A stretch of 64,000 bases of DNA from an uncultured bacterium (GCA_964588795.1 CAZPQN010000003.1:18639-82638), one strand, 5' to 3'; numbered from the stretch's first letter, positions 15,728-52,930 are shown. Made by a program: numbers and translations. The notes: a model not told the origin generated them from the letters alone.

Positions 15728-18571
15728 TCACAAGGCAATTCCGGCCAAAACCAGCTCCATTCGGGTGTCGCGTTCATGTACACGGTAGGTGTAGCGTACT
15801 CCACCGGTCAAATCAACCGGCATGGTAAAAAGATTAAAATCGCACTGCAATTCAATACCGAACGCGTCGTAAAGCACAGACCGTGATCCTGTTTTCCCAG
15901 ATGCCCGGTCGCCGAACAGATTGCTCCAGATACGTTTACAATTAAACAGGGCACCCAGGGCGAAATCCGGATAAAACAGCGGAAAGGCATAATCCAACGA
16001 AGCGCGTCGGAAATGATCGTAGTAGGTATAGGCATAACCGCGAACAAACGATACCGGACTTACAAAACGATAATTGGTTGGATCCTGAATCTCGACCGCG
16101 CCTCCGATCACCAGGCTATGATGGCGCGCTAGCCCCGGGAAATAGAGATTACCCTCGCCGACTAACTGCCGACCCTGATAATCCATCTTAAACGGCGTAT
16201 GCCGCAATGTTAATTGCCCATCAATACCGGCAACCGGTCGTAAATCGCGCAGGGCTTTACTCCGATACTTCTGGTAGACGACCTGGTAATGGAACGGGCA
16301 GAAACTGCCGTCATTATTCACGTAGCTTTTAGGTTGTTCTTTTCCTTTCAGCGAGGTAATGCCAAAACCGGCGTTGAGCTCCAGCCGTCGCGAATAGACT
16401 CCGCTCGAAAGATCACAGGGAAGCCGCAGATTCAATGCCAGGTTACGCTCTGTCCAGACATCGGTCACCGTTCGCCTCCCATTATTGATCAGGGCAAATC
16501 TTCTTCCGCAACCACTGCTGACGTCAACAATCGGACGGATACCGGCATAACTGCAGGTGGCATTGACGAACAGCGCTTTCTCGCTGGCGTAATAGAGCAG
16601 GGCTGGACTGAATTGAAAGGTATTTAAAAGATCAGTAGAAAAACAACCGGCCGCTAAAAATCCCGAGACCGGAATGAAGTACCAGCTGTGAATATTGATC
16701 AGGTGGGCGCGGGGACTGTATTCTGTCGAGGGATAAATTATATCAGGTATTTTCTCCGGCATTAGCGGATTTTGCGGATTTTCTTGCTCCATAATAGGTG
16801 CAAAATAATCAATCGGACGCCGGGCAACCGTTTCCAACGCTCGCCAGTTGACCGTATCCAACGTCGTGCATTTGATGTCCAATCCTTTAACCGCGTAATC
16901 GCTGTAAACCAACTGGTTCCCTTTTACCATCGGCGAAAATGCCCCAAAACGACTGGAAATTACCTGATACCGACGACCGTTCATCAGGTCGAGGGCATAG
17001 ATATTGTCAATCCCGGAGTACGAAGAGCTGTAGAAAATATAGTCGCCTGCCTGGATAGGATTGGATACATTTTCGTCACTTTCCGGCAGGAGGTCGCGGA
17101 ACTCTCCGCTGTGACAATCGAGCCTAGTCAGTGTCTTACCATTAAATTGCTGGCGGGTCATAATTAAAAACTTCCCGTCCGGAGACCATGACGGTTCCTT
17201 AAGAAAAGAATTGGCAGGTGCCGGAAAGCGCTTGATTGTTGCCCCGGTTCGAGGATCAAGTAAAACTATCGCACAACGACGTTCCGGTGTGAATTCAATC
17301 GCGGCGATATTTTTCCCGTCTGGCGCGGGTGCCGGGGCAAAGTACCGTCCGCCGCTGGTAATTTCCTGCACACGTCCGGTCTGCAGGTCACAGACCGCGA
17401 CATCCGAGGCTATTTGACTTCCCCAAAACCTGTCGGTGTTGTAGACACTCCAGGTCGCTAACTGTCCATTGATGGCGACCCGCCCCGGTCCTGATACAAA
17501 AGTCAGGGGTTTTTCCCGCCCGTCAGCCTGAATTCGAACCAGCGTCGGAATATCGGCCATCCCGGAAATGGTGACCCAGAGTGCACCGTCCGCAGACCAT
17601 TGTGGCCAGCGGTACTGGGTCCAGACTTTTTTCGGTTTCTTATTCAGCGGCGTAACTTCTTCGAAGATCAAATTAGCCGATTGCCATTGCCAAAGAGAGT
17701 CCAGCTCATTCATCGTCGCCTGATAGATCTGGCGTGAATTTTTCCCGATAATACGCTTTGCCATCCGGCTGAAAGCAAAAGGACTGTAACTACGCTGGGC
17801 AGAGCGAGTTATGATCCGCGCCCAGGCATCAGCACCATAGCATCGCCGGACATGCGTCGTCATCAAGTATCCTAAGGTATAATGATTCGGGTAATAGTCG
17901 CGATAAGAGTTTAAGAAAGCCTTGTAATACGAATAACGGAATCCCGAAAGCTCTACCGCTCTTACGCCAATATCAAATTCCGGTAAACGGCCACGACCAC
18001 TGCGAGAGAGCGCGGTTTCGATTCCCACCGCGTCACCTTCCCAGAACCAGGCCGGAGTCTGCCAGAAACTGAGCACGCGTCCGACGTCGCCAAATAAAAA
18101 ACTCGCCAGGCGAGTGAAACCCCGCTCATGATAATCGAACTGTGCCATGTGCCGCCCTTCATGCACCGCGAGCAGGTTGTACCATTCTTCCGTGCCGGAG
18201 AAATTATCCTGCGGAGGCGTGGCAAACCACTCACTTTTCCGCGGCGCCAGACTGACATAGCCATTGGCGACGGCGCTCCGATTAGAAAGCACGACCGGCC
18301 ACCGGCGACTTTCGACTCGCAGGGTCTTGCGCAAAGGTTGATGCAAATATTCGAGAGTGTTGGCGACCCGCTGGGCTTCGGATTCGATTTCAGCCGGAAA
18401 AACTATTGCATAATGCTGAGTTTGCAGTTGACGCCAGTGAATGCCCGGCGGTGGCTGATTCGAGTCGAGCATCTGCGCGTATACCAGAGCAGAAAGATAG
18501 TGCATAGCGAAAATGGTATAGCCGATGTTCTTAAAAAAGACGTTGGCCGGCGGTTTCCAGGAATTTTTCAT
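15728..18571 (-). CDS. large secreted protein (947 aa): N-terminal HExxH zincin-like domain, central TolB/PD40-like beta-propeller repeats, beta-strand-rich C-terminal region
   Basis: Signal-like MHYLSALVYAQ; AVHEGRHMAQFDY (HExxH); repeated ...SPDGK.../...APDGKNIA... propeller-like blades; Tyr/Gly-rich C-terminus. Confidence 0.5.
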   Translation of the reverse strand: MKNSWKPPANVFFKNIGYTIFAMHYLSALVYAQMLDSNQPPPGIHWRQLQTQHYAIVFPAEIESEAQRVANTLEYLHQPLRKTLRVESRRWPVVLSNRSAVANGYVSLAPRKSEWFATPPQDNFSGTEEWYNLLAVHEGRHMAQFDYHERGFTRLASFLFGDVGRVLSFWQTPAWFWEGDAVGIETALSRSGRGRLPEFDIGVRAVELSGFRYSYYKAFLNSYRDYYPNHYTLGYLMTTHVRRCYGADAWARIITRSAQRSYSPFAFSRMAKRIIGKNSRQIYQATMNELDSLWQWQSANLIFEEVTPLNKKPKKVWTQYRWPQWSADGALWVTISGMADIPTLVRIQADGREKPLTFVSGPGRVAINGQLATWSVYNTDRFWGSQIASDVAVCDLQTGRVQEITSGGRYFAPAPAPDGKNIAAIEFTPERRCAIVLLDPRTGATIKRFPAPANSFLKEPSWSPDGKFLIMTRQQFNGKTLTRLDCHSGEFRDLLPESDENVSNPIQAGDYIFYSSSYSGIDNIYALDLMNGRRYQVISSRFGAFSPMVKGNQLVYSDYAVKGLDIKCTTLDTVNWRALETVARRPIDYFAPIMEQENPQNPLMPEKIPDIIYPSTEYSPRAHLINIHSWYFIPVSGFLAAGCFSTDLLNTFQFSPALLYYASEKALFVNATCSYAGIRPIVDVSSGCGRRFALINNGRRTVTDVWTERNLALNLRLPCDLSSGVYSRRLELNAGFGITSLKGKEQPKSYVNNDGSFCPFHYQVVYQKYRSKALRDLRPVAGIDGQLTLRHTPFKMDYQGRQLVGEGNLYFPGLARHHSLVIGGAVEIQDPTNYRFVSPVSFVRGYAYTYYDHFRRASLDYAFPLFYPDFALGALFNCKRIWSNLFGDRASGKTGSRSVLYDAFGIELQCDFNLFTMPVDLTGGVRYTYRVHERDTRMELVLAGIAL

Positions 18572-18728: not shown

Positions 18729-20207
18729 CTAAAAGCTGATTTTCAAACGCAGGTACGGCCAGAGATTCTCCATCAGGTCAATTTCCTTGACTCCGTACAG
18801 CGTGTAGCGGCCGTCGAACTCGGAACCGCGTGAGCCTCCTAAAATGAAAGCCCCTACGGTGATGTCAAAATTGTTATAGGGCGAGTAACTGTAACCCGGC
18901 AGGACCGCAAAACTGCCGTCGTCCAGATTAGTAAAGAAAGCCAGGTTGAATTTATGGAAATCCTTAACCGTTTTTTCCAACATCAGGAACGAATAATTGC
19001 GGGCGTTGACCAGTTTCTCACCGGACAGGATTGTCATAAGATTGTAGTCTTTTTTATTTTTAGCACCGGAACCCTGATAGTAGTACTCCATCCGCGTGTC
19101 GACCTCAACCGCCGAGATCCGGTAGTCGAAACCCAGACACATTTCCAAATTATCGGCGGTACGATAATTTTTCAGGACGAATTTTTTATCCCGGTTATCG
19201 CGGGGCAAGCGGAGGACAAACTCACCATATACCCCGCAATCCCCGATTGCTCCGGCAAAATCAAAACCCGCGAAATAACTGCGCTTATAATAAGGATGAC
19301 GCGGCAGGTCAGCCAGCAGCTGGGCCAAGGCTCCCTGCTTGAACATTTCGAGAACCGTGACAGTGTCGCCCGCCGCCAACAGCTCCGCCATTGCCTGGTT
19401 GGCGACTATTCCCTGAATATAAGCCATGCCAGCCTGGGTCAGGACTGCGTCCAGCGGGCGAGTATCCAAATCATTATAGAGCACTTCTCTGATCCAGCTC
19501 AGTGAAATGTCGAACGCGCCGGCGATGCCATTCAGTTTAATGCCATAGGGCAGGTTTTTAATGTCGCTGTCCTCCTGATAGGCGGTCTTTTTCTGGGTCT
19601 TATCCTGGAAAGCGAGGTAGGCTTCGATGGAGAAACGGTTGGAAAGAGCATAACTGGGCAATAGTGCCATGGTACCCGGCGTATCCTCCGTCACCATATC
19701 CAGAAACGGTGGAAAAGCCACCCGCGCCGTGGGATTGAAAACATATCCTGTGCCCCAGGCGACCGGGAACTTCCCAAACTGCAAATCAAAATCACCAAAA
19801 CTGGCCATCCCCCAGACATGATCGAAAAACAGGCGCTGATTAAAATCCTCCAGTGGAAAATCGCTCTGCGAAAATCCGGCAATACCCAACCTTTCATAAA
19901 GCAGATAGGGATTTTGATTGCCTACGTTGGACTGGTAGGAAAATTCCATATGAAAGCGCAGGTTCTGCTCCGGTCGCCAGTCACCCTTCAAGCGTAGTAA
20001 AAGAGCATCCCCGAACGTGGGCCGGGAAAACTGCTGATTTCTAAAATTCAGACTGGATTGAAAATAGTTTATGAGGTAGCCGTAAAGACCGGTCGATTCA
20101 TCGGAACCGCCCATACTCGAATCCTCATTCGGCGCACTTGCTACTGTCAGATCAGCACCCAGCCCGCTGATTAAAAAAACCATCGAAAGATAGATTATTT
20201 TTGGCAT
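18729..20207 (-). CDS. putative outer-membrane beta-barrel protein
   Basis: Signal peptide MPKIIYLSMVFLISGLGADLTVASA; alternating amphipathic pattern; C-terminal ...YLRLKISF ending in Phe typical of OM barrels. Confidence 0.5.
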   Translation of the reverse strand: MPKIIYLSMVFLISGLGADLTVASAPNEDSSMGGSDESTGLYGYLINYFQSSLNFRNQQFSRPTFGDALLLRLKGDWRPEQNLRFHMEFSYQSNVGNQNPYLLYERLGIAGFSQSDFPLEDFNQRLFFDHVWGMASFGDFDLQFGKFPVAWGTGYVFNPTARVAFPPFLDMVTEDTPGTMALLPSYALSNRFSIEAYLAFQDKTQKKTAYQEDSDIKNLPYGIKLNGIAGAFDISLSWIREVLYNDLDTRPLDAVLTQAGMAYIQGIVANQAMAELLAAGDTVTVLEMFKQGALAQLLADLPRHPYYKRSYFAGFDFAGAIGDCGVYGEFVLRLPRDNRDKKFVLKNYRTADNLEMCLGFDYRISAVEVDTRMEYYYQGSGAKNKKDYNLMTILSGEKLVNARNYSFLMLEKTVKDFHKFNLAFFTNLDDGSFAVLPGYSYSPYNNFDITVGAFILGGSRGSEFDGRYTLYGVKEIDLMENLWPYLRLKISF

Positions 20208-20976: not shown

Positions 20977-23697
20977 TTATTTTTGCTTCTGGTCAAAAGT
21001 CAACAGGGCGGGTAAAATGAATATGGCGGTCAACAGGCAGGTCGTTATACCCACGAAGAGAATCCGCCCCATGGAATTTACTGATCCAAATCGTCCGATC
21101 AACCCCAACGAACCAAATCCGATCATCGTCGTCAAGGCTGACAGTAAAACGCCTTTACCGGTGTAGCGATAGACGGTTTTGATGTCTTGTTCAACCCGGA
21201 AACGGTGCGCGATATGAATACCGAAGTCGATACCCATGCCGATGACGAGAGGTATCATGGCGATGTTAATGAAATTTAGTCGCTGCCCCAATAATGGATA
21301 CAAACCACCCATCCAGAGCATGCCGATAATTAGCGGCGCCGACGCGAAAACCACATATTTCAGGTTCCGGAAATTCAGAATCAGGAAAAAGAGCACTGCC
21401 GCAAAAATATATATGCCTGCCCTCCCGGAAGCATTAATAACCTCGTCTAACCAGGCTGTCAGGATTTGGGTTACCCCGGTGATTCTCGGCGATACCCGCG
21501 CAAGGGAATTGTTAAAATGGCGAATTATGTCAATTTTATCCAGAATACCTCCTTCCGGATAGATCATGATCAGATTCCGGGTTCCCGTTTGATCGAACAT
21601 GCCATTCCGGACGGATTCCGGCAGGTCGTCAATGGTCATCGGGCGGCGGGCCTGACACATCCGGGTAACGATCGCATCCATTTCCTTAGCAAAATAATAA
21701 TCCAGCTGGGTCAGACGCCGGGCGTATAGTTGCGGATCGCTGGCGATAAGCCCAATCAAATTTTTAAAAATTTCCCGCCCCGACTGACCCACCTCCGCTC
21801 CAAAAATCTCGCGAATCATGGCATTGCGCCTTTTGACGATCTTATTGTTCTCGCCCAATCCGGCGACTGAGAGATCGCTCATCTCAATAATATTCCATTC
21901 CAGGCGCTGAATTTCCTGCACAAATCTTTCAATATCGGCACTAGAATAGTGTATCTGACGGTAGCGGGTGGGCATTTTACGCAGCTTGGCGATGGCCGCC
22001 AGCCGAGCCTGCTGTTCCTCTTCCGGGGGAAAGAAGTAGGACACCGAACTGATCTCGGCGATCATCGGAGTTTTTTCCAGTTTTTCGGTAATCGTGCGAG
22101 CTTCCTCAATGCTATTGGTTATCACCATCGAGGCAAAGGGGGTCATCTCGAATTTTTCCATGACTTTCTGATATTGGATCATCGCGGGCATATCCTGCGG
22201 CTCGAGCTTCATGATATCATATTCAAGTCGGTTCAGGAATATCGCCCCAGACAGTCCGACGGTGATCAGCCCGCTCAATATCAGGGATAGCTTTCGATGT
22301 CTGTAAAGCGTCTGGCTGATGTCGGCTAAAAACTGATAATTGATGTTGGGCAGGTGGGTTTTGCTGACATCCTTTTTTCCCCACCAGAGTAAGAGGGATG
22401 GTAATATGAAAAACATCGCTAAAAAACAATTAATGATGCCGGTCCCCATAATCAGCCCGAATTGCTCAAAAGCCTGGACGCCGGCAGCGGACATGACAAA
22501 AAAAGCGATCGCCGTCGTTATTGCGGCTAAAAATGTACCCATCCCGGCTTTTTGATAGGTAAGACGCAGGGCTTCGGGCGGTTCATAACCGTCCTCACGG
22601 TAAGTGGTAAAATTGGTTATGATCTGAATCCCGTAATCCACTCCTAACCCGATGAGCAGGATGCCCATAATGCTGGTCATCATGTTGATCTCTTTAATTG
22701 TCACGCCAACGAATCCGTAATTAAATACAACCCCCATAATCAGGACCAGCAAAACGAAAATTATTGAACGCAACTGGCTGAAGGAAAAAATAAACAGCAA
22801 TAAAATCAGAACAATAGCCACTATTGACGGAACCGCCATATCGAAGCTGAGTGCGTCCTGTTCATCGCTCTGAGTTGGTAAATCGCCGGTATACCCGACA
22901 TGTAAATCAGGATACTTGGCATTCATAGCACTCTGTACTACTTTTATCTCATGCATGAACTCGATCACTTTTTCTACTTCGATCGCGTTAATTGCGGGGG
23001 TGATAGTGAATAAAAGCATGCTGTTATCATGGTTAAACCGGTACGGATCGCCGTAGAGAAATGTCTCCGCTAGGACCTGGCCCTGCTCTGCAACCGGCAA
23101 CGTGTCCGGATTGGATAGAAAAACCCGCAAACTGGTAAAGAAGTTCTCTATTTGCGAAAGCATGGCAACCGCATCGTTTTCCTGCTTGTTGGTCTCCAGC
23201 TCCTCTTCGGCTTCGTCGCCTGTGTAAGTCTCCTCAAAAGAATTATTCAGCGCGGTGACGAATGGTAAAAGATTCAGTTGCGACAAGGTTTGGCTGGTCT
23301 TTTCAATGTCCTTGGCCTTGGACAGCATCAAACCCCAATCATCAATGAACTGGCGATCGGTTTTCAGGTTGATGGCTTTGATACTCTGCACCAGCTTCTC
23401 ATTGGCGCGGACCATGGCAACGAAATCCTCGGCACACTGGCCCATGCGTATTTTATCCTGACCCTCGATGGTGATCATGGCGGTAGCTCCACCGGAAAAA
23501 ACCGAATCAACTTCGAGATAGCTGGCAATTTTGGGATCTTCTGCTGATAGGAGGTCCTTGATCTCGGTTTTCGTTTCAATATTTTGCGCCGCGATCAGAC
23601 TAAGCACAAAAAGCACTACCGCCACAAACGGTATCCATTTGTAAAAACGAACTACGAAATTAGCGACGATTTGCATGATTTTTCCCTCTGATTTCAT
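20977..23697 (-). CDS. MMPL/RND-superfamily exporter (predicted 12-TM, two large periplasmic loops)
   Basis: 906 aa, two repeated 6-TM bundles each preceded by a large hydrophilic loop; characteristic of COG1033 exporters. Confidence 0.8.
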   Translation of the reverse strand: MKSEGKIMQIVANFVVRFYKWIPFVAVVLFVLSLIAAQNIETKTEIKDLLSAEDPKIASYLEVDSVFSGGATAMITIEGQDKIRMGQCAEDFVAMVRANEKLVQSIKAINLKTDRQFIDDWGLMLSKAKDIEKTSQTLSQLNLLPFVTALNNSFEETYTGDEAEEELETNKQENDAVAMLSQIENFFTSLRVFLSNPDTLPVAEQGQVLAETFLYGDPYRFNHDNSMLLFTITPAINAIEVEKVIEFMHEIKVVQSAMNAKYPDLHVGYTGDLPTQSDEQDALSFDMAVPSIVAIVLILLLFIFSFSQLRSIIFVLLVLIMGVVFNYGFVGVTIKEINMMTSIMGILLIGLGVDYGIQIITNFTTYREDGYEPPEALRLTYQKAGMGTFLAAITTAIAFFVMSAAGVQAFEQFGLIMGTGIINCFLAMFFILPSLLLWWGKKDVSKTHLPNINYQFLADISQTLYRHRKLSLILSGLITVGLSGAIFLNRLEYDIMKLEPQDMPAMIQYQKVMEKFEMTPFASMVITNSIEEARTITEKLEKTPMIAEISSVSYFFPPEEEQQARLAAIAKLRKMPTRYRQIHYSSADIERFVQEIQRLEWNIIEMSDLSVAGLGENNKIVKRRNAMIREIFGAEVGQSGREIFKNLIGLIASDPQLYARRLTQLDYYFAKEMDAIVTRMCQARRPMTIDDLPESVRNGMFDQTGTRNLIMIYPEGGILDKIDIIRHFNNSLARVSPRITGVTQILTAWLDEVINASGRAGIYIFAAVLFFLILNFRNLKYVVFASAPLIIGMLWMGGLYPLLGQRLNFINIAMIPLVIGMGIDFGIHIAHRFRVEQDIKTVYRYTGKGVLLSALTTMIGFGSLGLIGRFGSVNSMGRILFVGITTCLLTAIFILPALLTFDQKQK

Positions 23698-23721: not shown

Positions 23722-24405
23722 TCATTTTCTGGGATCTTTAAAACGTGATGCAGACATGCTTTTCATAATTTCATTAAGATTAAGCATTTCGATTTGATCC
23801 CGGGTCAGCGCTGAATAAAGCTTGCCAAAAGAATTGGCGAAAATGGTTGAAATGGTCTTCAAATCGGTATGATAGTACTCGCACCATTCATCACTAAATA
23901 TTACAAAGGAAAACAAGGGCGCAAAAAAGCAAAAGAAACCACTTAACAGCTGGGCCTGATTCTTTTCCAGTCTAATGCCTAATCGAGCCGAAATAGCATA
24001 ACCGGCATCGAAATTCTGATCGAAATAGCGGAAAATATTCAGGTGGGGGGTCAATTCTACATCTTTGATGGACTCGGCAAATGCAATTTTAATCGCGTTT
24101 TTATTGGCCATCAAAAAAGGTAGCGTGTTGTTCAAAATGATCGTGTCGATACCAAGCGTCGGTTCTGCAAGCCAGGCTTCGGTGATGGATTGTTTGATGA
24201 CCACCGACTTTTTCACGAAGTCATCCATGAGCGAGGCCAGGATTTCTTCCTTGCTCTTGAAATAATAGTAGATGAGTGACTTGGTTATTCCCGCCGTTTT
24301 GGCGATCTGATCAATACCGGTGGCGTCGAAACCGCGCTGAGCAAAAAGGGCTTCAGCCGTCTGCAGGATCTTCCGGCGGATGTTTTTTCTTGGTTGCTTG
24401 ACCAT
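23722..24405 (-). CDS. TetR/AcrR family transcriptional regulator
   Basis: N-terminal HTH AEALFAQRGFDATGIDQIAKTAGITKSLIYYYFKSKEEIL. Confidence 0.85.
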   Translation of the reverse strand: MVKQPRKNIRRKILQTAEALFAQRGFDATGIDQIAKTAGITKSLIYYYFKSKEEILASLMDDFVKKSVVIKQSITEAWLAEPTLGIDTIILNNTLPFLMANKNAIKIAFAESIKDVELTPHLNIFRYFDQNFDAGYAISARLGIRLEKNQAQLLSGFFCFFAPLFSFVIFSDEWCEYYHTDLKTISTIFANSFGKLYSALTRDQIEMLNLNEIMKSMSASRFKDPRK

Positions 24406-43172: not shown

Positions 43173-44576
43173 ATGAACAATAACCACATTTTAGCCGATT
43201 CGCATATCGGTCGCCTGCTCATAAAGCTCTCGCTTCCCGCTACGATCGGTATGCTCGTCATGGCGCTTTATAATATTGTTGACACAATATTCGTGGGACA
43301 CGGCGTTGGTTCCCTGGCGATTGCCGGTTTGACGATTGTCTTTCCGATTCAAATGATTGTAATGGCGGTTGCTATGATGGTTGGTATGGGCGCCGCCTCC
43401 ATTATTTCCCGCGCCCTGGGAGCGAATGATATAGCACGCGCAAACCAAACTTTGGGCAATGTTCTGCTGATCGTCGTGAGTTTAGGAATCGTCGTGGCAG
43501 TGGGTGGAAATTTGTGCATCGATGTCCTCCTGAAAATTTTCGGCGCTACTCCGGCGATTCTGCCCTATGCCCGGGATTATGCTCGCATCATCTTAGCAGG
43601 CACCATGCTTTTTGCTTTCGCGATGACGGCCAATGCCGTGGTCAGAGCCGAAGGACGGGCGACTATCGCCATGACTACAATGATAGTCTCTTCCGTGCTG
43701 AATATCATTCTCGATGCGGTTTTTATTTTCGGCTTTGGCTGGGGTATCCGGGGCGCGGCAGTGGCGACTGTCGTTTCGCAGCTGACTACCGATCTGTATT
43801 TGCTTGGTTTTTTTGTGCGCGGCAAAGGTTCCTTAAAAATCTGTCGTGTCGGATTCCGGCCGAATTTCAAAATAATCCGGGAGATGGTGGCAGTCGGTTC
43901 CTCGGCTTTCGTGCGCCAGATATCCGGCAGTTTGATTGCTGTGATCGTCAATAATACCCTCAAGTTTTACGGCGGAGAATTGTCAATAGCCGTCTACGGC
44001 ATCGTCAATCGGATTCTTATGTTTGTTTTCATGCCCATCTTTGGCATCGCCCAGGGCGTTCAGCCGATCGTCGGCTATAACTATGGTGCCCGCCGCTATG
44101 CTCAAGCTCTGCGCGTATTGCATCTCGGGATGGTCTGCACCACGCTGATCGCGGTAGCCGGAGCGTTTTATCTGGAAATCTTCCCAGCGCAGATCTTCTC
44201 CTTTTTTACCAATGATCAACAGCTCATCAAATTGGGAGTGCGGGCCATCCGCATCATCAACATCGGCACTGCTTTGATTGGATTCCAGGTCATTGCCACC
44301 ACATTATTCCAATCGCTGGGCATGGCTCGTAAGGCCCTCTACCTGACTGTCGCCCGACAATTGGTCCTAATCCCCCTGGTAATCTTTCTGCCAATCCCTT
44401 TCCAGCTGAATGGCGTCTGGTGCGCCTTCCCCCTGAGCGATCTGCTCTTCTTCTTCGTCAGCTGGGGTATGTACCGACCGCAAGTCCACAACCTGAAAAA
44501 GATGCACCTGCACCCGGAACTATCGGTCATCGCCGCGCATGAAGTAACGCCATCGGCGCATTTTAATAGGATCTGA
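43173..44576 (+). CDS. MATE family efflux transporter
   Basis: 12 TM, 467 aa, twin 6-TM repeats with MATE-typical loops. Confidence 0.85.
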   Translation: MNNNHILADSHIGRLLIKLSLPATIGMLVMALYNIVDTIFVGHGVGSLAIAGLTIVFPIQMIVMAVAMMVGMGAASIISRALGANDIARANQTLGNVLLIVVSLGIVVAVGGNLCIDVLLKIFGATPAILPYARDYARIILAGTMLFAFAMTANAVVRAEGRATIAMTTMIVSSVLNIILDAVFIFGFGWGIRGAAVATVVSQLTTDLYLLGFFVRGKGSLKICRVGFRPNFKIIREMVAVGSSAFVRQISGSLIAVIVNNTLKFYGGELSIAVYGIVNRILMFVFMPIFGIAQGVQPIVGYNYGARRYAQALRVLHLGMVCTTLIAVAGAFYLEIFPAQIFSFFTNDQQLIKLGVRAIRIINIGTALIGFQVIATTLFQSLGMARKALYLTVARQLVLIPLVIFLPIPFQLNGVWCAFPLSDLLFFFVSWGMYRPQVHNLKKMHLHPELSVIAAHEVTPSAHFNRI

Positions 44577-44630: not shown

Positions 44631-45107
44631 TTGAATACCCTGATTGTTTATACCACGCATCATGGTTGCGCCGCCTTCTGTGCTGAAAAATTAGCCCAAC
44701 GACTGAATCCGCCCGTCACAACGCTCGACCTTAAAAAACAGCGTGTCCCGGACCTCGCCGGTTTTGAGGCAATCATCATCGGTGGGTCAATCCACGCCGG
44801 ACGCCTACAAAAAATCGTGCGCCGTTTCTGCGAGCAGAACCAGGCCATCCTGACCCAGAAAAAAATCGGCTTGTTTCTGTGTTGCATGGAGGAAGGCGAT
44901 AAAGCCCGCCTGCAATTTGAAACAGCGTTTCCGTCTCAGCTGCGGCAACAGGCCGTCGCTACGGGACTATTCGGCGGCGCCTTTGATTTCCAGAAGATGA
45001 ACTGGCTGGAACGCGCCATAATTAAAAAAATCTCCGGGCTCACTGACAGCGTCACCAAGATTAACGAGAGTGCCATCAGCGAGTTCGCCCGGACATTCAA
45101 TCAATAA
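44631..45107 (+). CDS. flavodoxin-like fold protein (Flavodoxin_5/HemG-like)
   Basis: TTG start after AGGAGG; N-terminal LIVYTTHHGCAAFCAEKLAQRL typical flavodoxin beta1-loop; 158 aa. Confidence 0.55.
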   Translation: MNTLIVYTTHHGCAAFCAEKLAQRLNPPVTTLDLKKQRVPDLAGFEAIIIGGSIHAGRLQKIVRRFCEQNQAILTQKKIGLFLCCMEEGDKARLQFETAFPSQLRQQAVATGLFGGAFDFQKMNWLERAIIKKISGLTDSVTKINESAISEFARTFNQ

Positions 45108-45122
45108 ACCAAGGACGGCTTT

Positions 45123-45506
45123 ATGCGTTTCAATTTTCTATTTGGCTGGTTGTTCCTGATTTGCCTGAGCCTTATTCAATGTAAACCAATCCAGGAATAC
45201 CAGCGACGAATGGCCGCTATCGAGATTACCGAGATTGACTTAAACAAAGTCAAAGACGGTGAATATACGGGTGAATATGACGCGGTAGCTGTTCATGCGG
45301 TCGTTTCGGTTACCGTCAAAAACCACACGATTACCGACATTCGGCTCCTTAAGCACGAAAACGGACGGGGTTCCGCGGCGGAGGTAATACCTAATCGCGT
45401 CATTGAAAAACAATCCCTGCTGGTAGACACCGTGACCAAAGCCACTTCCAGCAGTAAGGTCATCCTTGAAGCAATCGAACAAGCCCTGCGCAAAGGACTG
45501 GATTAA
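45123..45506 (+). CDS. secreted/lipoprotein FMN-binding (FMN_bind) domain protein
   Basis: Signal peptide MRFNFLFGWLFLICLSLIQC; C-terminal VDTVTKATSSSKVILEAIEQAL resembles the flavinylation motif region of FMN_bind domains. Confidence 0.55.
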   Translation: MRFNFLFGWLFLICLSLIQCKPIQEYQRRMAAIEITEIDLNKVKDGEYTGEYDAVAVHAVVSVTVKNHTITDIRLLKHENGRGSAAEVIPNRVIEKQSLLVDTVTKATSSSKVILEAIEQALRKGLD

Positions 45507-45547
45507 CAGCAGATTGCCTGCCCGGGAGAAAAATCCGGGGCCTCGCC

Positions 45548-46660
45548 TTGGTTCATAACGAACTATTTACCTCCCTACTGATCTATTACCAGAGCGGAAC
45601 GGGCAACTCTTACCGCGCCGCAGTCTGGATGGCCAGAACAGCCCAGGAAAAAGGCTTACCTGCCACCCTGATCCCACTCGAACTGAGTGAGCCCGGAAAG
45701 GAATTAAAAAATGACCGGCGAGCGTTAATCGGCTTTGTCATGCCGACTCACGGCTTTACTGCTCCCTGGAGCATGATCAAATTTATCCTGCGCCTGCCAA
45801 AAGGGCGCCACCTCCCGGCCTTCTGTCTGGCTACGCAGGGACAATTGAAATGCGGTCCGGTTCTTATCCCGGGACTAAGCGCCACGGCAACTTTCCTCTC
45901 CGCTTTCCTGCTATATGTTAAAGGTTTTCACGTACGCGGCGTCGAGAGCATCAACATGCCTTCCAACTGGATGAGCCTGCATCCCGCGCAAAAACCGCAT
46001 TCCATTCGCACGATCGTCAATCGCGGCCAGCCCCGTGCGGAATATTTTATTACCCGCCTGCTCAATGGCAAAATCAATTGGCTCACTGCAAGTAATTTGG
46101 TGGAGTTCATCGGTGGTTTGATCTTGCTACCGGTCGCCTGTGGCTACCTGCTTTTCGGCAAAACCGGCATGGCCAAAATCTATTTTGCGAATAACGCCTG
46201 CAATGGTTGCGGTCGATGTGCCGAAATTTGCGCACAAAAGGCTATCATCATGAAAAACTCCCTTCATCCCCGTCCTTTCTGGACTTACCGCTGTGAAAGC
46301 TGTATGCGCTGTATGGCTTTTTGCCCTCAAACCGCGATCGAAGTAAATCAACCGTGGGTGATCGGGCTTTTTTTCTATATCGTCATGCCGTTGAGTACCT
46401 GGTTGGCGATCCGGGTTGTGAATTTCGCCCAGCTTCCGTACTGGTGGAACATTTTTATTTATGGTGTTGTTTATCTTGTTACTTACCTGAGCTCGGTCGC
46501 GGTATCGTACCTAATCCTTTTTGGGCTTACCCAATTTAAAAGGCTGAATGCTATGCTGACCCACACGACTTTTTCACATTACTATCGCCGGTACCGGGAA
46601 CCTGCTACACAGGTAAACGACCTCACCCGTAAGCAGGTTTTTCAGGCGCCGCGGAAGTAA
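45548..46660 (+). CDS. membrane-anchored flavodoxin-like + 2x[4Fe-4S] ferredoxin protein (EFR1-family-like)
   Basis: N-terminal LIYYQSGTGNSYRAA flavodoxin-like; CNGCGRCAEICAQKAI and CESCMRCMAFCPQTAI clusters; C-terminal TM helices. Confidence 0.6.
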   Translation: MVHNELFTSLLIYYQSGTGNSYRAAVWMARTAQEKGLPATLIPLELSEPGKELKNDRRALIGFVMPTHGFTAPWSMIKFILRLPKGRHLPAFCLATQGQLKCGPVLIPGLSATATFLSAFLLYVKGFHVRGVESINMPSNWMSLHPAQKPHSIRTIVNRGQPRAEYFITRLLNGKINWLTASNLVEFIGGLILLPVACGYLLFGKTGMAKIYFANNACNGCGRCAEICAQKAIIMKNSLHPRPFWTYRCESCMRCMAFCPQTAIEVNQPWVIGLFFYIVMPLSTWLAIRVVNFAQLPYWWNIFIYGVVYLVTYLSSVAVSYLILFGLTQFKRLNAMLTHTTFSHYYRRYREPATQVNDLTRKQVFQAPRK

Positions 46661-47647
46661 CTATTTGCCAGCGGTAAGCACCCTCAATTGTTGCTGATTA
46701 ACGTTCAGCAGTCCCACCGCCTGGATGCGTTCGGTCAGGATGCGCCAGTTGTTGTCCCGCTGAAACACTTCCTGGAAAATGCGCTGGGCTTCGTCCAGTT
46801 TACCAATGTTGGCCAATGAAACGGCATGCCAGTAGCGCATTTCCAAGTTTTCCGGAAAAAGTTGCTCGGCCAACCCGTATTCCCGCAGGGCGGTGATTTC
46901 GTCCCGGCGCTCAATCGCCAAATCCCCGGCGTTCATATGTTTATAAGCCTGGTCAACCCGCAAAAGACGTCGCAATTCTTTGACCGGGTCTGGATGATCT
47001 TCGATGCGCAGGTCAATCAGCCGGTCTTCCCAGATGCGGCCCGTAGGCTGAGCACGAACAACCAACAACGCCGCTGATTGCCGACCGCGAATATCGCCGC
47101 CCGCCGCTTCCGCGGCTTCGAGTGCGGTCAGCATTCTTTCTGCCAGTGAACCCCTGGCGGATTGGAAAGCCGCGTGCATCGCCGGCCAGACTGTCGCCTG
47201 CAACATCATATTCGCCTGAACGGAAAAACCTTCCCCAGTGTTGTGCCCGGCACAGGCAATGCACTGGGCACCGGTCCAGGCGGCTACTCGACCACCCGCA
47301 TCCACGATTGCCAACTGCCGATAGTCACGCCCGTCATCGCCTGCGATCAATAATTGCAGAACTTCATCAGCTTTCTTGCCGGCTTTGAGATACTGCAACC
47401 CTTCCGGCCCGAAGGCGGGATTGACCAATGACTGAGTCGCGATGACCCCGACGCCGGCCTCCGCCCAGGAAACAATAGTACCCACCGAAAACCAATGACT
47501 CTGCACCGCCACTCCCATTTCACCTGTTTCCGTATCTCTTGCTACGACAGAATAAGTATGCATCAGGGGGCCCGGCCGGGACTGAGCCGCCGCATTGATG
47601 AGCGACATAGCAATCACGCTCCAGATTACAAACATTGGTTTGGTCAT
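46661..47647 (-). CDS. secreted DUF1028 family (Ntn-hydrolase-like) protein with C-terminal TPR-like region
   Basis: Signal peptide then HTYSVVARDTETGEMGVAVQSHWFSVG matching the DUF1028 T(F/Y)SIVARD N-terminus; C-terminal helical repeats. Confidence 0.65.
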   Translation of the reverse strand: MTKPMFVIWSVIAMSLINAAAQSRPGPLMHTYSVVARDTETGEMGVAVQSHWFSVGTIVSWAEAGVGVIATQSLVNPAFGPEGLQYLKAGKKADEVLQLLIAGDDGRDYRQLAIVDAGGRVAAWTGAQCIACAGHNTGEGFSVQANMMLQATVWPAMHAAFQSARGSLAERMLTALEAAEAAGGDIRGRQSAALLVVRAQPTGRIWEDRLIDLRIEDHPDPVKELRRLLRVDQAYKHMNAGDLAIERRDEITALREYGLAEQLFPENLEMRYWHAVSLANIGKLDEAQRIFQEVFQRDNNWRILTERIQAVGLLNVNQQQLRVLTAGK

Positions 47648-47775
47648 ATTAATGCTCCTTAAAAGATCTTAAATATCCACTACAACTCAAACTTTTCTCC
47701 TTTTGGAATTTGGATTTGGATTAAGCTCGTCAATCATAGGCGTATCTGCAATAGCTCAAGCCCGAGAAGGCGCAT

Positions 47776-47789
47776 GGATAAATTTACCC
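47776..47789. promoter_or_regulatory. possible weak operator-like site ATAAATTTAC upstream of the putative OMP/ABC operon
   Basis: Shares the AAATTTAC arm of the TetR palindrome at 24421-24452; about 32 nt upstream of the OMP gene start (47821). Confidence 0.2.
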
Positions 47790-47820
47790 GAATGCCTAAT
47801 TAAGGTGAGTAACCCCGGAT

Positions 47821-49005
47821 TTGTATATTTGGCGATTTTTTTCTAATCTGTCAGCAGACATGCAGACGACTAGGACACATTATCAGAGGTACCGATTAAT
47901 TGGCTCGTTGTTATTCCAGATGGGAATCGCCGGTAGCGTGATTGGTCAGGGTCAGACCAACCCGGCAAGTACCTGGGATTTTCGCGGACAGTTGGAACTG
48001 AGTGGCAGTCTGAGCCGTTATCAGCAGATCTGGTCGAGACGGGGAACCGCCCGGTATCTGCCATCAATCGAATACCAGCACCAATTGTCAGAGGCCAGGA
48101 CTCTCGGCGCGGATTTCTCTGTCATCCTGTTCGCGGATAGTATAAAAAAACCTGCCCCCGAAAACGTTGATCTCTACCGTCTGAGCTTCCGCTATGCGAC
48201 TCCCCAAAGTGAATGGCAGTTCGGTTTGCAGAAAATCAATTTTGGACCGGCTCAGATTCTGCGTTCCTTGATGTGGTTCGACCGCCTTGATATTCGGGAT
48301 CCGCTGAAAGCTACCACCGGCGTCTGGGGACTACGCTGGCGCTATAATTACCTGAATAATGCCAACGCCTGGCTATGGGTGCTCTATGGCAACGACGGTA
48401 CCAAAGGGATGGAAACGGTGCCGACAGCGCAAGGTCGCCCGGAACTCGGCGGTCGTTTTCAAATTCCAGTACGCTCCGGCGAAGTGGCGATGACAATACA
48501 TCAACGGGCGCTTGCCCAGCCCTTCGATAAGGATGAAACCCGGGTGGCCTTCGACGGACGCTGGGATTTCATCTTGGGCTGGTGGCTCGAAGCAGTCTGG
48601 CATAATAATAGCCCGGACCTCAAATATGCGGTCACCGGGGGAGTGGATTACACCTTCGGAATTGGCAATGGCCTTTATACCATACTCGAGCATAAAACCA
48701 ATTTTTTCCCAACCAGCAATCGCTTTCCTGAAATGAATCTGACCGGGCTGACCCATTGGCACGGCTACGATCTGCTTAAGGTCTCTGCATTGATGCTCAC
48801 TTACCCTCTGACGCTGTTCGATAACCTGGTGGCGGTAGGTTATTATTCATGGGCTACGAATGAGTTTTTCGAATATTTGGGCTGGCAGAGAACCTTCGAC
48901 AGAGTGATTATTAACCTGAGCTTTTTTAATTACCCTGGACCGACACTGGCTACGGGAAAAATGGCTGGTTCTGGCGCCCAGCTTATGTTAATTTACAATC
49001 ATTGA
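47821..49005 (+). CDS. putative outer-membrane beta-barrel protein (start uncertain)
   Basis: No cytoplasmic motif; alternating aromatic/hydrophilic pattern; loosely resembles ORF 18729..20207; upstream of Lol-like ABC operon. Confidence 0.35.
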   Translation: MYIWRFFSNLSADMQTTRTHYQRYRLIGSLLFQMGIAGSVIGQGQTNPASTWDFRGQLELSGSLSRYQQIWSRRGTARYLPSIEYQHQLSEARTLGADFSVILFADSIKKPAPENVDLYRLSFRYATPQSEWQFGLQKINFGPAQILRSLMWFDRLDIRDPLKATTGVWGLRWRYNYLNNANAWLWVLYGNDGTKGMETVPTAQGRPELGGRFQIPVRSGEVAMTIHQRALAQPFDKDETRVAFDGRWDFILGWWLEAVWHNNSPDLKYAVTGGVDYTFGIGNGLYTILEHKTNFFPTSNRFPEMNLTGLTHWHGYDLLKVSALMLTYPLTLFDNLVAVGYYSWATNEFFEYLGWQRTFDRVIINLSFFNYPGPTLATGKMAGSGAQLMLIYNH

Positions 49006-49031
49006 CAGTGGTTTGATAAAGGGGACAATTC

Positions 49032-49733
49032 ATGCACAACTCGGCAATTATCACAATCCAGAATCTGGTTAAAGACTATCCCATAGGTGGCGGTTCATTC
49101 CGGGCGTTGAGCGACATCAGTCTGCAAATCGGTCAAGGTGAATTTATCGGTTTGGTCGGCCCGAGTGGCAGCGGCAAAACAACTTTGCTGAATATCATTG
49201 GTGCACTTGATAATCCCACCGCGGGACATACCGAAGTCCTGGGACATACCATCGAGAACCTCAGCCACCGGCAGGCCGCACGGTTGCGCAACTCCTATCT
49301 CGGATTTATTTTCCAGACCTATAACCTGTTGCCCGTGTACAATGTTTACGAAAACGTGGAATTTCCGTTGCTATTATTGAAAAAGAGTCAAAATGAACGT
49401 CGGGAACTGACTCTGCGCGCTCTGGAATGGGTGGGCTTGACCGATAAAATCAAGTCCCGTCCGGCTCAACTCTCCGGTGGGGAGTGCCAGCGCGTCGCCA
49501 TTGCCCGGGCTATGGTCAAGCAACCCCAGGTCGTGTTGGCCGATGAACCGACCGCCAACTTGGACGCCGCCAATTCCCACCACATCTTGCAGACCATGGC
49601 GAAGCTCAACACCGAGCTCAAAACGACCTTTATCTTCGCGACCCATGATGACAAGGTCATCGGCTACCTGCGCCGCAAAGTCAGTCTGGCGGATGGTCAC
49701 GTGATAAAAGACGAAAACATCGTACAATCCTGA
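49032..49733 (+). CDS. ABC transporter ATP-binding protein, LolD/MacB-type
   Basis: Walker A GPSGSGKTT, signature LSGGECQRVAIARA, Walker B VVLADEPT, 233 aa. Confidence 0.85.
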   Translation: MHNSAIITIQNLVKDYPIGGGSFRALSDISLQIGQGEFIGLVGPSGSGKTTLLNIIGALDNPTAGHTEVLGHTIENLSHRQAARLRNSYLGFIFQTYNLLPVYNVYENVEFPLLLLKKSQNERRELTLRALEWVGLTDKIKSRPAQLSGGECQRVAIARAMVKQPQVVLADEPTANLDAANSHHILQTMAKLNTELKTTFIFATHDDKVIGYLRRKVSLADGHVIKDENIVQS

Positions 49734-49746
49734 ACAGGAGAGTAGC

Positions 49747-50919
49747 ATGTTAGCATTAAAACTTGCTTTCCGCAACCTGATGGGCGCCCGTTTGCGCACC
49801 TGGTTGAATGTATTTGTACTATCCCTGGCTTTCGTCTTAGTTATCTGGTTCAAAGGAGTACTGAACGGCTGGGACCGCCAGGCGCGCCGTGAAACGATTA
49901 ACTGGCAAATCGGTGGCGGGCAGTACTGGCAAGAGAATTACGACCCTTACGACCCTTTCACAATTGAAGATAGCCACGCGCTTTTGACCGATTCGATCCA
50001 AAAAGAAATCGGACAGGGACATCTGACCCCCATGCTGATCAGTCAGGCGACGATCTACCCGCAGGGACGCATCCAGAATGTCAAATTGCAGGGCGTTGAT
50101 CCAAATCAGAAAATCCTCGCCCTGCCTTCCGAGTATCTGAACACGACGGACGGTGGCATTCCGGCGATGATTGGCGAACGCACCGCCCGCAACAGTAAAT
50201 TGTCCATTGGGGACTTTGTCACCATCCGCTGGCGGGACGCCAATGGAACTTTCGACGCCGATGAAATCCGTATCGTGCACATCTTCAAAACTGACGTGGG
50301 TACGATGGATATGGGGGTCGTATGGATTCCCTTGAAAAAGCATCAGGAAATGATGCGCCTGTCCAACTCCGCGACTATCCTTACCACCGCTCAGGAAGCC
50401 GGTTTTCGGGGGCCATTCACCGGCTGGGATTTTAAGGATCATGCCTATCTGTTAAAAGAAATTGAAGCTATGATCGAGACCAAGTCAATCGGTGGTATAG
50501 TCATGTTCCTGTTTCTGATGTCGCTGGCGATGCTGGCGATTTTTGATACTCAGGTATTATCTATTTTCCGACGCCAGAAAGAAATCGGCACGCAAATCGC
50601 CCTGGGTATGACCCGCCCTCAGGTCGTGACCCTGTTTACCATTGAAGGAGCGATGCATTCCGTTTTTGCCGCAATCTTAGCCGCAATTTACGGTGCGCCG
50701 CTACTGGCTCTGCAAGCCAAAGTCGGTTGGAAGATGCCCGCCGGAACCGACGATTTCGGTCTGACCATTTCCGAAACGATCTACCCGGCTTACTCGGTAG
50801 GATTGGTGCTGGGCACAACCCTTTTGGTGATGATCACCACGACTATTGTCAGTTATCTTCCCGCCCGCCGGATTGCGAAGATGAATCCGACCGATGCCAT
50901 CAGAGGAAAAATCCAATGA
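49747..50919 (+). CDS. ABC transporter permease, FtsX/LolC/LolE family
   Basis: N-terminal LALKLAFRNLMGARLRTWLN; TM1, large periplasmic domain, 3 C-terminal TMs. Confidence 0.75.
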   Translation: MLALKLAFRNLMGARLRTWLNVFVLSLAFVLVIWFKGVLNGWDRQARRETINWQIGGGQYWQENYDPYDPFTIEDSHALLTDSIQKEIGQGHLTPMLISQATIYPQGRIQNVKLQGVDPNQKILALPSEYLNTTDGGIPAMIGERTARNSKLSIGDFVTIRWRDANGTFDADEIRIVHIFKTDVGTMDMGVVWIPLKKHQEMMRLSNSATILTTAQEAGFRGPFTGWDFKDHAYLLKEIEAMIETKSIGGIVMFLFLMSLAMLAIFDTQVLSIFRRQKEIGTQIALGMTRPQVVTLFTIEGAMHSVFAAILAAIYGAPLLALQAKVGWKMPAGTDDFGLTISETIYPAYSVGLVLGTTLLVMITTTIVSYLPARRIAKMNPTDAIRGKIQ

Positions 50920-52190
50920 TCAAGTTTATCTTACGCGGTTTGTTACGCGATCGGCACCGTAGTTTGTTTCCATTCCTGATTGTGACGTTGGGAGTCTGGA
51001 TTGCGGTCTTCATGCAAGCCTATATGAATGGCGTCCTGTCAGATATGGTTGATTATAACGCCCGTTATGCCACCGGACATGTCAAGGTCATGAGCCGGGC
51101 TTATGCTGAAAATGTCGATCAACTCCCCAATGACTTAGCCTTGACCGGCGTCTCGAATCTCATGCAAAGACTCCAGCAGGAATACCCCGATATGACCTGG
51201 GTCAGACGTATCCAGTTCGGTGGATTACTGGACATTCCCGATGATAATGGAGAAACCCGGGCACAATGCATGGTCATCGGGATGGGCGTGGATTTACTGA
51301 GTCCCGCAAGTTCGGAAATCAACACCCTCAATATCGGCAATTCGCTCGTGTCCGGACGCATGCCACGCGAAGCGGGCGAAATTCTGGTCAGCGTGGACAT
51401 GGCGGAAAAACTGGGCGTTCAGCCCGGCGAAGTCGCCACGCTTTTGTCCTCCAGTATGTACGGCAGTATGGTTATTTACAATTTTAGCGTGGTCGGCACT
51501 CTTCGATTTGGGGTGCAGATGATGGATCGGGGTGCAATGATCGCGGATGTGACTGACGTGCAGGCAGCACTCGACATGCAGGACGCCGCCGGTGAAATTA
51601 TCGGTTATCTGCCGAATCGTGTCTATGATGATTTGGCCTGTCAGGACATCGTCCGCAAATTCAACGCGGGATATGAGCGGGATACGAGTGAGTTTGCACC
51701 GGTCATGGGCACTCTGAAGGAAATAAGCAATTTGGGTGGCTACCTCGATATGGCTTCCAGCTTCTCAAGTATCATCGTGGCGGTCTTCATGATGGTAATG
51801 TCGGTGGTGCTCTGGAACGCCGGACTTTTAGGCGGCTTGCGACGCTATGGCGAAGTCGGCGTGCGCTTAGCCATTGGTGAGAACAAGAGCCATATTTTCC
51901 GCACGATGATTTACGAGTCAATGGCTATCGGGCTATTTGGTTCGATTACTGGAACAGTCTTTGGTCTGGGCTGCGCTTACTGGATGCAGGTCAAGGGATT
52001 GGACATCAGCAATCTGATGAAAAATGTCAATATGATGATCCCTACTATTTTTCGCGCCCGAATCACCCCGACGACCTACTACATCGGCTTTTTCCCTGGC
52101 CTGCTGGCCACGGTGTTGGGTACGGCTCTGGCTGGCATCGGCATTTACCGGCGGCAGACAGCCTCATTATTCAAGGAGTTGGAAGCATGA
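50916..52190 (+). CDS. ABC transporter permease, FtsX/LolC/LolE family (second copy)
   Basis: ATGA overlap with upstream permease stop; MIKFILRGLLRDRHRSLFPFLIVTLGVWIAVF; same topology. Confidence 0.75.
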   Translation: MIKFILRGLLRDRHRSLFPFLIVTLGVWIAVFMQAYMNGVLSDMVDYNARYATGHVKVMSRAYAENVDQLPNDLALTGVSNLMQRLQQEYPDMTWVRRIQFGGLLDIPDDNGETRAQCMVIGMGVDLLSPASSEINTLNIGNSLVSGRMPREAGEILVSVDMAEKLGVQPGEVATLLSSSMYGSMVIYNFSVVGTLRFGVQMMDRGAMIADVTDVQAALDMQDAAGEIIGYLPNRVYDDLACQDIVRKFNAGYERDTSEFAPVMGTLKEISNLGGYLDMASSFSSIIVAVFMMVMSVVLWNAGLLGGLRRYGEVGVRLAIGENKSHIFRTMIYESMAIGLFGSITGTVFGLGCAYWMQVKGLDISNLMKNVNMMIPTIFRARITPTTYYIGFFPGLLATVLGTALAGIGIYRRQTASLFKELEA

Positions 52191-52930
52191 AAATCGTAAC
52201 GGGTGGTTTAGTACTTTGCCTTTTAGTACAGTTCCCCACCGCTCAGACTCTTAGCGGGCGGGAAATCCTGGACCGGGTCGATCAAAACCGCATCGTGGGA
52301 CAGGCCATCAGCGTGACCACGATGATCATTCACGGACGCAGTGGTACCAGAACCATCCAGGCGCGTGCCTGGAGCGATGGCACCGAAAAAGCCTTCGTGG
52401 AGTACCTTTCGCCCGCTCGTGAAAAAGGCAAAAAAATGCTGAAACTGGCCAAACAGCTCTGGATTTACACTCCGGAACCAAATGACCGGATCATCGCCAT
52501 CTCCGGTCACCTTTTGCGGCAATCCGTGATGGGCTCTGACCTATCTTACGAAGATATGCTTGAAAATGACATCTTACAGGATCAGTACGAAGCCCGTGTG
52601 TTGGGACAGGAAACACTGCATGATCGGCAATGCTATTTACTCGAGTTGACAGCACGCATGGACAACATCGCCTACCATTCCCGCAAAATCTGGGTCGACA
52701 GCGAACGCTATTTGCCATTGAAAGAAAATCGCTATGCCCGCGGGGGTAAACTGCTGAAAACTACCACCGTGCATTCCGTATTTCAGGTTGACGGGCACTG
52801 GTTGCCGAAGAAGATGACATTCCGCGATATGCTGTCGAGCGGCGGCGGCACGGAATATATCATTGACTCGCTTGATTTCAAGGTTAACATCCCCGATTAC
52901 CAGTTTACCAAAGCCGCTCTGCGCAAATAG
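52187..52930 (+). CDS. LolA-like periplasmic protein (paralog of 20219..20962)
   Basis: ATGA overlap with permease stop (translational coupling); signal peptide; shares ...SDLSYEDM... block with the other copy. Confidence 0.55.
   Translation: MKIVTGGLVLCLLVQFPTAQTLSGREILDRVDQNRIVGQAISVTTMIIHGRSGTRTIQARAWSDGTEKAFVEYLSPAREKGKKMLKLAKQLWIYTPEPNDRIIAISGHLLRQSVMGSDLSYEDMLENDILQDQYEARVLGQETLHDRQCYLLELTARMDNIAYHSRKIWVDSERYLPLKENRYARGGKLLKTTTVHSVFQVDGHWLPKKMTFRDMLSSGGGTEYIIDSLDFKVNIPDYQFTKAALRK

Follow-up and report, generated by a model that had tools for sequence, protein, structure and literature searches.

The window analysed here, a stretch of 64,000 nucleotides (nt) from an uncultured bacterium (GCA_964588795.1, CAZPQN010000003.1:18639-82638), holds a module of five co-directional genes on the + strand (47860-52930), which encode an outer-membrane barrel, an ATP-binding cassette (ABC) ATPase, two FtsX-type permeases and a carrier of the LolA superfamily. 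We lean towards reading this module as an accessory three-compartment export route for hydrophobic or amphiphilic cargo, and its being a replacement of the normal lipoprotein pathway is unlikely. In fact, an add-on system, and not the sole Lol pathway, is suggested by the unrelated flanks of the module in its relatives, the protein identity kept across phyla, the presence of two carrier modules within 35 kb and the coexistence of such carriers with canonical LolA.

Gene content and conservation of the module

The genes of the module, with protein lengths in amino acids (aa) and the main family matches, are the following:

47860..49005, + strand: barrel gene, outer-membrane beta-barrel protein, 381 aa (ATG at 47860; mechanical open reading frame (ORF) from TTG at 47821)
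49032..49733, + strand: ABC ATPase, LolD/FtsE/MacB type, 233 aa (ABC_tran 4.4e-34)
49747..50919, + strand: permease 1, FtsX-type (type VII ABC), 390 aa (FtsX 1.7e-13)
50916..52190, + strand: permease 2, FtsX-type, 424 aa (FtsX 4.7e-14, MacB_PCD 2.5e-06)
52187..52930, + strand: carrier, PF17131 (LolA_like / TP_0789-like, 'LolA3-type'), soluble periplasmic, 247 aa (PF17131 2.1e-51)

The initial annotation had described an ATPase, two FtsX permeases and a LolA-like gene strung together by ATGA overlaps, and all these ORFs and both overlaps are indeed present: at 50916-50919 the stop of permease 1 overlaps the start of permease 2, and at 52187-52190 the stop of permease 2 overlaps the start of the carrier gene. 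Between the barrel and ATPase genes there are 26 nt, and between those of the ATPase and permease 1 there are 13 nt. As for the start of the barrel gene, ATG 47860 is the most likely one, and not TTG 47821, since a database protein 100% identical to its product has 381 aa; the same start is called on two other contigs. No sigma-70-like promoter was found in the intergenic region 47648-47859, where counts were near the shuffle expectation; this negative says little, as the lineage may use other promoter types.

A scan of contigs with the carrier gave five loci, belonging to four Fidelibacterota/Marinimicrobia metagenome-assembled genomes (MAGs) and to one MAG of an unclassified bacterium, to which a deltaproteobacterial contig and the KSB3 'Candidatus Vecturithrix' were added, making a total of seven related loci. 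The genes for the ATPase, permease 1, permease 2 and the carrier follow one another in the same order in all seven, and the barrel gene lies directly upstream in each of the six loci which reach that far (L002 is cut). Moreover, the ORF end coordinates reveal the same 4-nt overlaps at most junctions. As the same five genes occur in the same order in all complete loci, the arrangement is not a chance juxtaposition, and co-occurrence across relatives, which the annotation had proposed as a check, was found in Marinimicrobia, a deltaproteobacterium and KSB3. Identity to the window proteins is 38-44% for the barrel, 46-73% for the permeases, 58-68% for the carrier and 65-76% for the ATPase, and such values for the carrier and the ATPase across phyla would fit the horizontal spread of an accessory module. 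Furthermore, ten further pairs of carrier and barrel homologs have longest contigs of matching length (e.g. 336,959, 339,692 and 176,816 bp), an indirect sign of co-location.

The genes which flank the module in the window had no match in the seven related loci, and beyond the five genes of the module an all-against-all ORF comparison gave as recurrent families only TetR and, at scattered places, alpha/beta hydrolases. Five of the six complete loci have a TetR-family gene as the immediate upstream neighbour of the barrel gene:

L001, 4949-5623: TetR gene
L003, 5028-5639: TetR gene
L004, 4410-5006: TetR gene
L005, 708-1304: TetR gene
L009, 2659-3252: TetR gene

The presence of this regulator before the operon in most relatives suggests induction by a small ligand and, with it, a conditional role of the module. 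Regarding the hydrolases, four relatives have such a gene at 0.3-6 kb downstream from the module, three of these genes with lipoprotein-type signal peptides:

L001, 17010-18059: alpha/beta-hydrolase gene
L002, 8437-9051: alpha/beta-hydrolase gene
L004, 10999-12027: alpha/beta-hydrolase gene
L005, 7379-8398: alpha/beta-hydrolase gene

A link of these genes with the module, by analogy with YbbAP-TesA, was considered and rejected as probably coincidental, as they form two barely related pairs, vary in distance and orientation and have no counterpart in the window. No MacA/HlyD adaptor or TolC-type factor is encoded in the window module, and no such family recurs in the seven loci.

Carrier, ABC machine and barrel

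The carrier matches PF17131 along the whole profile (positions 1-184 of 184; E 2.1e-51, 174.6 bits, the gathering threshold being 30 bits). At E <= 0.1 it has no match to canonical LolA, PF03548, the families listed being PF17131, MucB_RseB and DUF1571, and at the same threshold none to the NCBIfam model LolA3_fam (NF053579, cut-off 83 bits). By sequence, it matches four solved proteins over nearly its full length, namely 3BUU ('LolA superfamily protein NE2245', 7.9e-19), 9TP6 ('LolA3 from Porphyromonas gingivalis', 4e-15), 3BK5 and 4Z48. The AlphaFold2 model, built with 31 sequences (pLDDT 87.6, pTM 0.80), adopts the open beta-barrel fold of the LolA superfamily and matches these same four structures. 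Judged by this model, the carrier belongs to the LolA superfamily, as a distinct and larger subtype, and the earlier view of a protein with a LolA fold which is not canonical LolA stood up to both proposed checks, hidden Markov model search giving PF17131 and structure prediction the LolA-superfamily fold. In an alignment inspected by eye, the signal peptide of the carrier and 29 homologs ends in ..AQ, followed by T/P, and the cysteine of the window copy is not conserved. Because of this signal peptide and of the lack of a conserved lipobox cysteine, the carrier is taken as a soluble periplasmic protein processed by signal peptidase I (SPase-I). Close homologs, with 60-69% identity, are named Latescibacteria, Marinimicrobia, KSB3 and Deltaproteobacteria. 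In general, PF17131 carriers are abundant (>7300 matches) and occur in Treponema, Borrelia and Porphyromonas.

The motifs of the ATPase are intact, with Walker A (GPSGSGKT), signature (LSGGE), Walker B (VVLADE, read from the translation) and H-loop (THD). Its best NCBIfam match is LolD TIGR02211, with 243 bits, under the cut-off of 307.75, while a further LolD model, NF008639, gives 208 bits, under its cut-off of 360; the scores of the FtsE, DarD, MacB and DevA models come close. Both permeases show type VII ABC topology in their hydropathy: permease 1 has a first transmembrane (TM) helix at ~14-42, a periplasmic domain of ~200 aa and three C-terminal TM helices, and permease 2 has TM1 at ~14-40, a MacB_PCD-type periplasmic domain of ~235 aa and three TM helices. 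The two are distantly related to each other (phmmer, E ~7e-4). With the LolC/LolE equivalog TIGR02212, whose cut-off is 362.45, permease 1 reaches 54.2 bits and permease 2 24.4 bits, and single-sequence searches gave weak LolC, LolF and MacB matches. Profiles built from eight orthologs of each permease were compared with solved structures, the matches being LolF (1.1e-11), LolE (3.2e-10) and MacB (0.0095) for permease 1, and LolF (5e-12), MacB (7e-09) and LolE (4e-06) for permease 2; FtsX is not among the PDB matches listed for either profile. Since the profiles are closest to LolF/LolE, and since these alignments cover the periplasmic domain and continue through the final TM helix, the machine is Lol-like in ancestry and layout. 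It does not, by its sequence, look like a canonical Lol member, the equivalog scores being far under the cut-offs. The LolCDE-like architecture noted at the outset was therefore recovered, with one ATPase and two different four-TM FtsX permeases with a large periplasmic domain, whose nearest solved relatives are LolF and LolE.

No sequence match in Pfam, NCBIfam or PDB was obtained for the protein encoded upstream, which is thus outside the Pfam porin families and DUF1302; the suggested check against DUF1302, LolB and outer-membrane protein families gave no Pfam or NCBIfam family. When 42 members of its family were scanned singly against Pfam, single chance-level matches appeared, one of them to a porin family (E 0.17), none being consistent. 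The family, which has no Pfam model, has a sharp boundary: among 1.84 billion representatives, a profile search gave 897 clusters at E <= 1e-3, including 500 at E <= 1e-30. Its AlphaFold2 model (pLDDT 82.6, pTM 0.77) consists of an N-terminal signal-peptide-like helix followed by an all-beta barrel of porin-type architecture, closest to the OprD/AlgE class, the structural scores of AlgE and Wzi being almost equal to that of OprD. The top structural matches are 18-stranded monomeric barrels, a strand number which is that of the matches and not of the model. The putative beta-barrel gene of the initial annotation is confirmed by this model and its matches, while the suggestion that it sits where LolB would be expected was a guess about function and did not hold, the protein being porin-like and not a LolB-type lipoprotein. 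Accordingly, a LolB-like lipoprotein was rejected on the grounds that the protein models as an integral beta-barrel, and so was an Omp85-type barrel, as proposed for Borrelia, on account of the porin-type model. There is no LolB-like gene within the module.

The top conservation in the barrel family falls on a non-strand loop, residues ~122-148 (GLQKINFGPAQ..R.L.WFD....DP), with 13 of the 45 invariant columns. Being the most conserved segment and yet not a strand, this loop is an obvious candidate for a gate or a docking site. The C-terminus is also conserved (...IYNH, the final ...YNH being nearly invariant), unlike that of most outer-membrane barrels, which usually end in an aromatic residue. 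Apparent carrier-barrel (Rosetta-stone) fusions were discarded, as P0361, P0459 and P0504 (620-640 aa) carry SPOR, PlsY acyltransferase or unannotated N-termini and are likely merged gene calls.

A second LolA_like set, neighbouring genes and related systems

Another PF17131 gene is found in the window, on the - strand, within a set of four genes:

23722-24405, - strand: TetR gene
20977-23697, - strand: MMPL/HpnN-like RND transporter, 906 aa
20219-20962, - strand: second PF17131 protein, 247 aa (E 4.8e-43)
18729-20207, - strand: putative porin, 492 aa, signal-peptide-like N-terminus, C-terminal ...KISF

The second carrier is 22% identical to that of the main module and reaches 19.8 bits with NF053579, for which the cut-off is 83. 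Homologs of the 492-aa protein are 'hypothetical' wherever they are named, two of them with a Porin_4 match, and neither BLASTP nor profile comparison detected homology between this putative porin and the main barrel. A theme thus recurs in two non-homologous sets of the window: an inner-membrane pump, a PF17131 carrier, a putative porin and TetR, the last of these standing beside the main module in its relatives. In addition, a 947-aa PD40/WD40-like beta-propeller protein is encoded 157 nt downstream of the putative porin (15728-18571, - strand), which recalls the BNR propeller of the DUF1302/DUF1329/RND gene sets.

On the other side, the upstream neighbour of the main barrel gene in the window is a divergent DUF1028 gene (46661-47647). 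Beyond it lies a redox gene set (44631-46660) without evident link to the module, whose genes are also present on both other contigs bearing the identical barrel gene:

44631-45107: flavodoxin-like protein, part of the redox set
45123-45506: FMN_bind protein, part of the redox set
45548-46660: 4Fe-4S membrane protein, 370 aa, part of the redox set
43173-44576: MATE transporter, preceding the redox set

Among the known systems, the E. coli LolCDE-LolA-LolB pathway, as well as homodimeric LolDF, likewise has one LolD-like ATPase and four-TM permeases of the FtsX fold, two per machine, with large periplasmic domains, and its LolA, as the carrier described here, is a soluble member of the LolA superfamily with an SPase-I signal peptide. 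Type VII ABC machines are established extractors of hydrophobic substrates in the cases of LolCDE and YbbAP (PMC8333309, PMC12646458), the latter taking hydrophobic compounds out of the inner membrane (PMC12646458). MacAB-TolC and YbbAP-TesA share with the module the FtsX/MacB fold, the MacB_PCD domain and mechanotransmission acting on periplasmic or outer-leaflet substrates. The module differs from them, however, in that it has no conserved MacA/HlyD adaptor, TolC duct or TesA-like hydrolase, and in that its two different permeases are separate from the ATPase.

Closer in general design are several clusters built around LolA-like proteins. The layout of the second set is the same as that of the P. 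gingivalis cluster PG1175-81, which contains LolA3 (PGN0947 / PG1179, PDB 9TP6) and where the pump consists of an MMPL/RND protein and two ABC ATPases, whereas the main module would use an FtsX heterodimer. In Borrelia, a computational study of 2026 proposed non-polar ligand export for BBJ25-28, comprising an Omp85-like barrel, a MacB-like ABC and a LolA-like protein, in an organism where canonical LolA is present too, as BB0346 (PMC13078400). A cofit set of Shewanella and Pseudomonas is made up of DUF1302 (outer-membrane protein), DUF1329 (LolA/LolB-like), a BNR propeller and a COG1033 RND exporter, and export of an envelope component has been proposed for it (bioRxiv 10.1101/072470); that set relies on an RND pump, as against an ABC in the main module, which has neither a DUF1302 match nor a propeller gene. 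LolA3 is patchy in Bacteroidota, where LolA1/LolB1 are universal (PMC11885536), and P. gingivalis, F. johnsoniae and Borrelia each have canonical LolA alongside carriers of the LolA3 kind (PMC13103446, PMC11885536, PMC13078400). The literature search found no published description of the exact five-gene module. The uncharacterised route of the initial annotation is nevertheless not entirely new ground, as analogous clusters of LolA-like protein, transporter and barrel have already been discussed.

The proposed export relay and its alternatives

In the reading we favour, the two FtsX-type permeases would form a heterodimer powered by an ATPase dimer. As with LolCDE and further type VII ABC machines, there would be no pumping across the inner membrane; ATP-driven motion of the periplasmic domains would pull a greasy molecule from the outer leaflet of that membrane. 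The cargo would then be handed to the soluble LolA3-type carrier, whose hydrophobic groove may shield it across the periplasm, and the co-encoded porin-type barrel would be a dedicated outer-membrane acceptor, acting as an exit channel or as an insertion site. Such a relay would probably have a conditional role, for example the export of a lipid, a pigment or a toxic hydrophobic compound, rather than bulk lipoprotein sorting.

Several points weigh against this picture. Analogy and synteny are the basis for its functional steps, from heterodimer formation, transport direction and carrier hand-over to the part played by the barrel and the kind of cargo, and since the solved proteins nearest to the permeases are true lipoprotein extractors, a lipoprotein cargo is conceivable. 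Conservation of the carrier is unusually high for a generic binder of hydrophobic ligands, and a specific protein partner might explain this. Barrels of the OprD class are classically uptake channels and would fit import as well as export, and the conserved loop 122-148 is moderately confident in the model (pLDDT 65-83). Finally, the adjacent TetR gene is absent in the window and in L008, and inducibility is thus not shown for the window copy.

The lipoprotein question leads to a specialised Lol paralogue, in which the ABC machine would extract a subset of lipoproteins, the LolA3-type carrier would ferry them and the barrel would insert them or flip them to the surface. That LolF and LolE are the best solved matches of both permeases, LolD the best family of the ATPase and the LolA superfamily the fold of the carrier speaks for it, as does the fact that lipoproteins are considered a possible cargo by the authors of the study on Borrelia BBJ23-29 (PMC13078400); moreover, F. 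johnsoniae localises surface lipoproteins without any LolA/LolB, so unknown routes exist (PMC11885536). Nevertheless, all Lol equivalog scores are far under the cut-offs, and P. gingivalis LolA3, with a 13-stranded sheet and a hydrophobic groove, has neither the arginine of LolA nor the leucine of LolB and shows no appreciable LolB binding (very weak with LolB-PG, as against a Kd of ~10 uM for canonical LolA-PG), its authors concluding on a separate function (PMC13103446). Deletion of lolA3 in F. johnsoniae left gliding and type IX secretion unaffected, and a surface reporter was still localised in a quintuple mutant including lolA3 (PMC11885536). As TetR control, present in relatives, is also unusual for lipoprotein biogenesis, we regard this paralogue as rather unlikely. 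The stronger version raised by the initial annotation, a lineage lacking classic Lol in which the module would be the sole housekeeping LolCDE-LolA in divergent form, seems quite improbable. No canonical Lol gene was found among the ~50 window ORFs scanned, and the module is kept in several Marinimicrobia MAGs; however, 64 kb cover little of a genome and such an absence is hardly informative, the flanks are not conserved, a TetR gene lies beside the module in relatives, closely alike modules occur in Deltaproteobacteria and KSB3, and a second PF17131 paralogue is already present in the same window. In addition, canonical LolA is present in those organisms with PF17131 carriers which have been studied (PMC13103446, PMC11885536, PMC13078400).

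Transport in the opposite sense, by which the OprD-like barrel would admit a hydrophobic nutrient, the LolA-like protein would bind it in the periplasm and the ABC would deliver it to the inner membrane, is an improbable explanation. In its favour, the barrel is best matched in structure by substrate-specific uptake channels, the P. gingivalis PG1175-81 cluster responds strongly to iron or haem limitation, being induced 13- to 136-fold under the former and up in a hemH mutant (PMC10434189, PMC13096392), and P. putida needs DUF1302/DUF1329 genes for growth on fatty esters and Tween 20 (bioRxiv 10.1101/2020.07.04.188060). Yet type VII ABC machines (FtsX/MacB/LolC-fold) have no transmembrane substrate path and no importer is known among them (PMC5985334, PMC12646458), the other partner seen with PF17131 carriers, an MMPL/RND pump, belongs to an exporting class, and AlgE and Wzi, which serve polysaccharide export or capsule assembly, score nearly as high as OprD for the barrel. 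Highly improbable, in turn, is an FtsEX-like mechanotransmission switch, with the ABC regulating a periplasmic partner and the LolA_like protein sensing lipids in the manner of RseB: it is LolF/LolE that the permease profiles match, with FtsX missing from the PDB matches listed, no sigma/anti-sigma factor or hydrolase gene is conserved nearby in the related loci, and a dedicated barrel has no place in such a model.

Extending the favoured export relay, it is tentatively conceivable that the module constitutes a fourth soluble-carrier envelope route beside Lol, Lpt and Mla. A LolCDE-like extractor would load a lipid or metabolite other than a lipoprotein, the carrier would dock on its private barrel and the invariant inner loop would gate release; such a route could be mobile and switched by TetR, with PF17131 carriers as interchangeable adaptors for ABC or MMPL pumps.

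The delivery to the outer membrane of hydrophobic molecules other than lipopolysaccharide, phospholipids and lipoproteins is poorly understood outside Proteobacteria. In this context, PF17131 carriers are automatically annotated as 'lipoprotein-sorting proteins', a label which is probably misleading, and in the sole biochemical test of such a carrier, P. gingivalis LolA3 does not work with LolB. The operons of the window tie PF17131 carriers to a Lol-like extractor and a private barrel, and a paralogue to an MMPL pump, and thereby provide a testable case for dedicated export routes. The module is an instance of a widespread, probably mis-annotated system, and offers a compact, conserved handle on the role of PF17131/LolA3 carriers.

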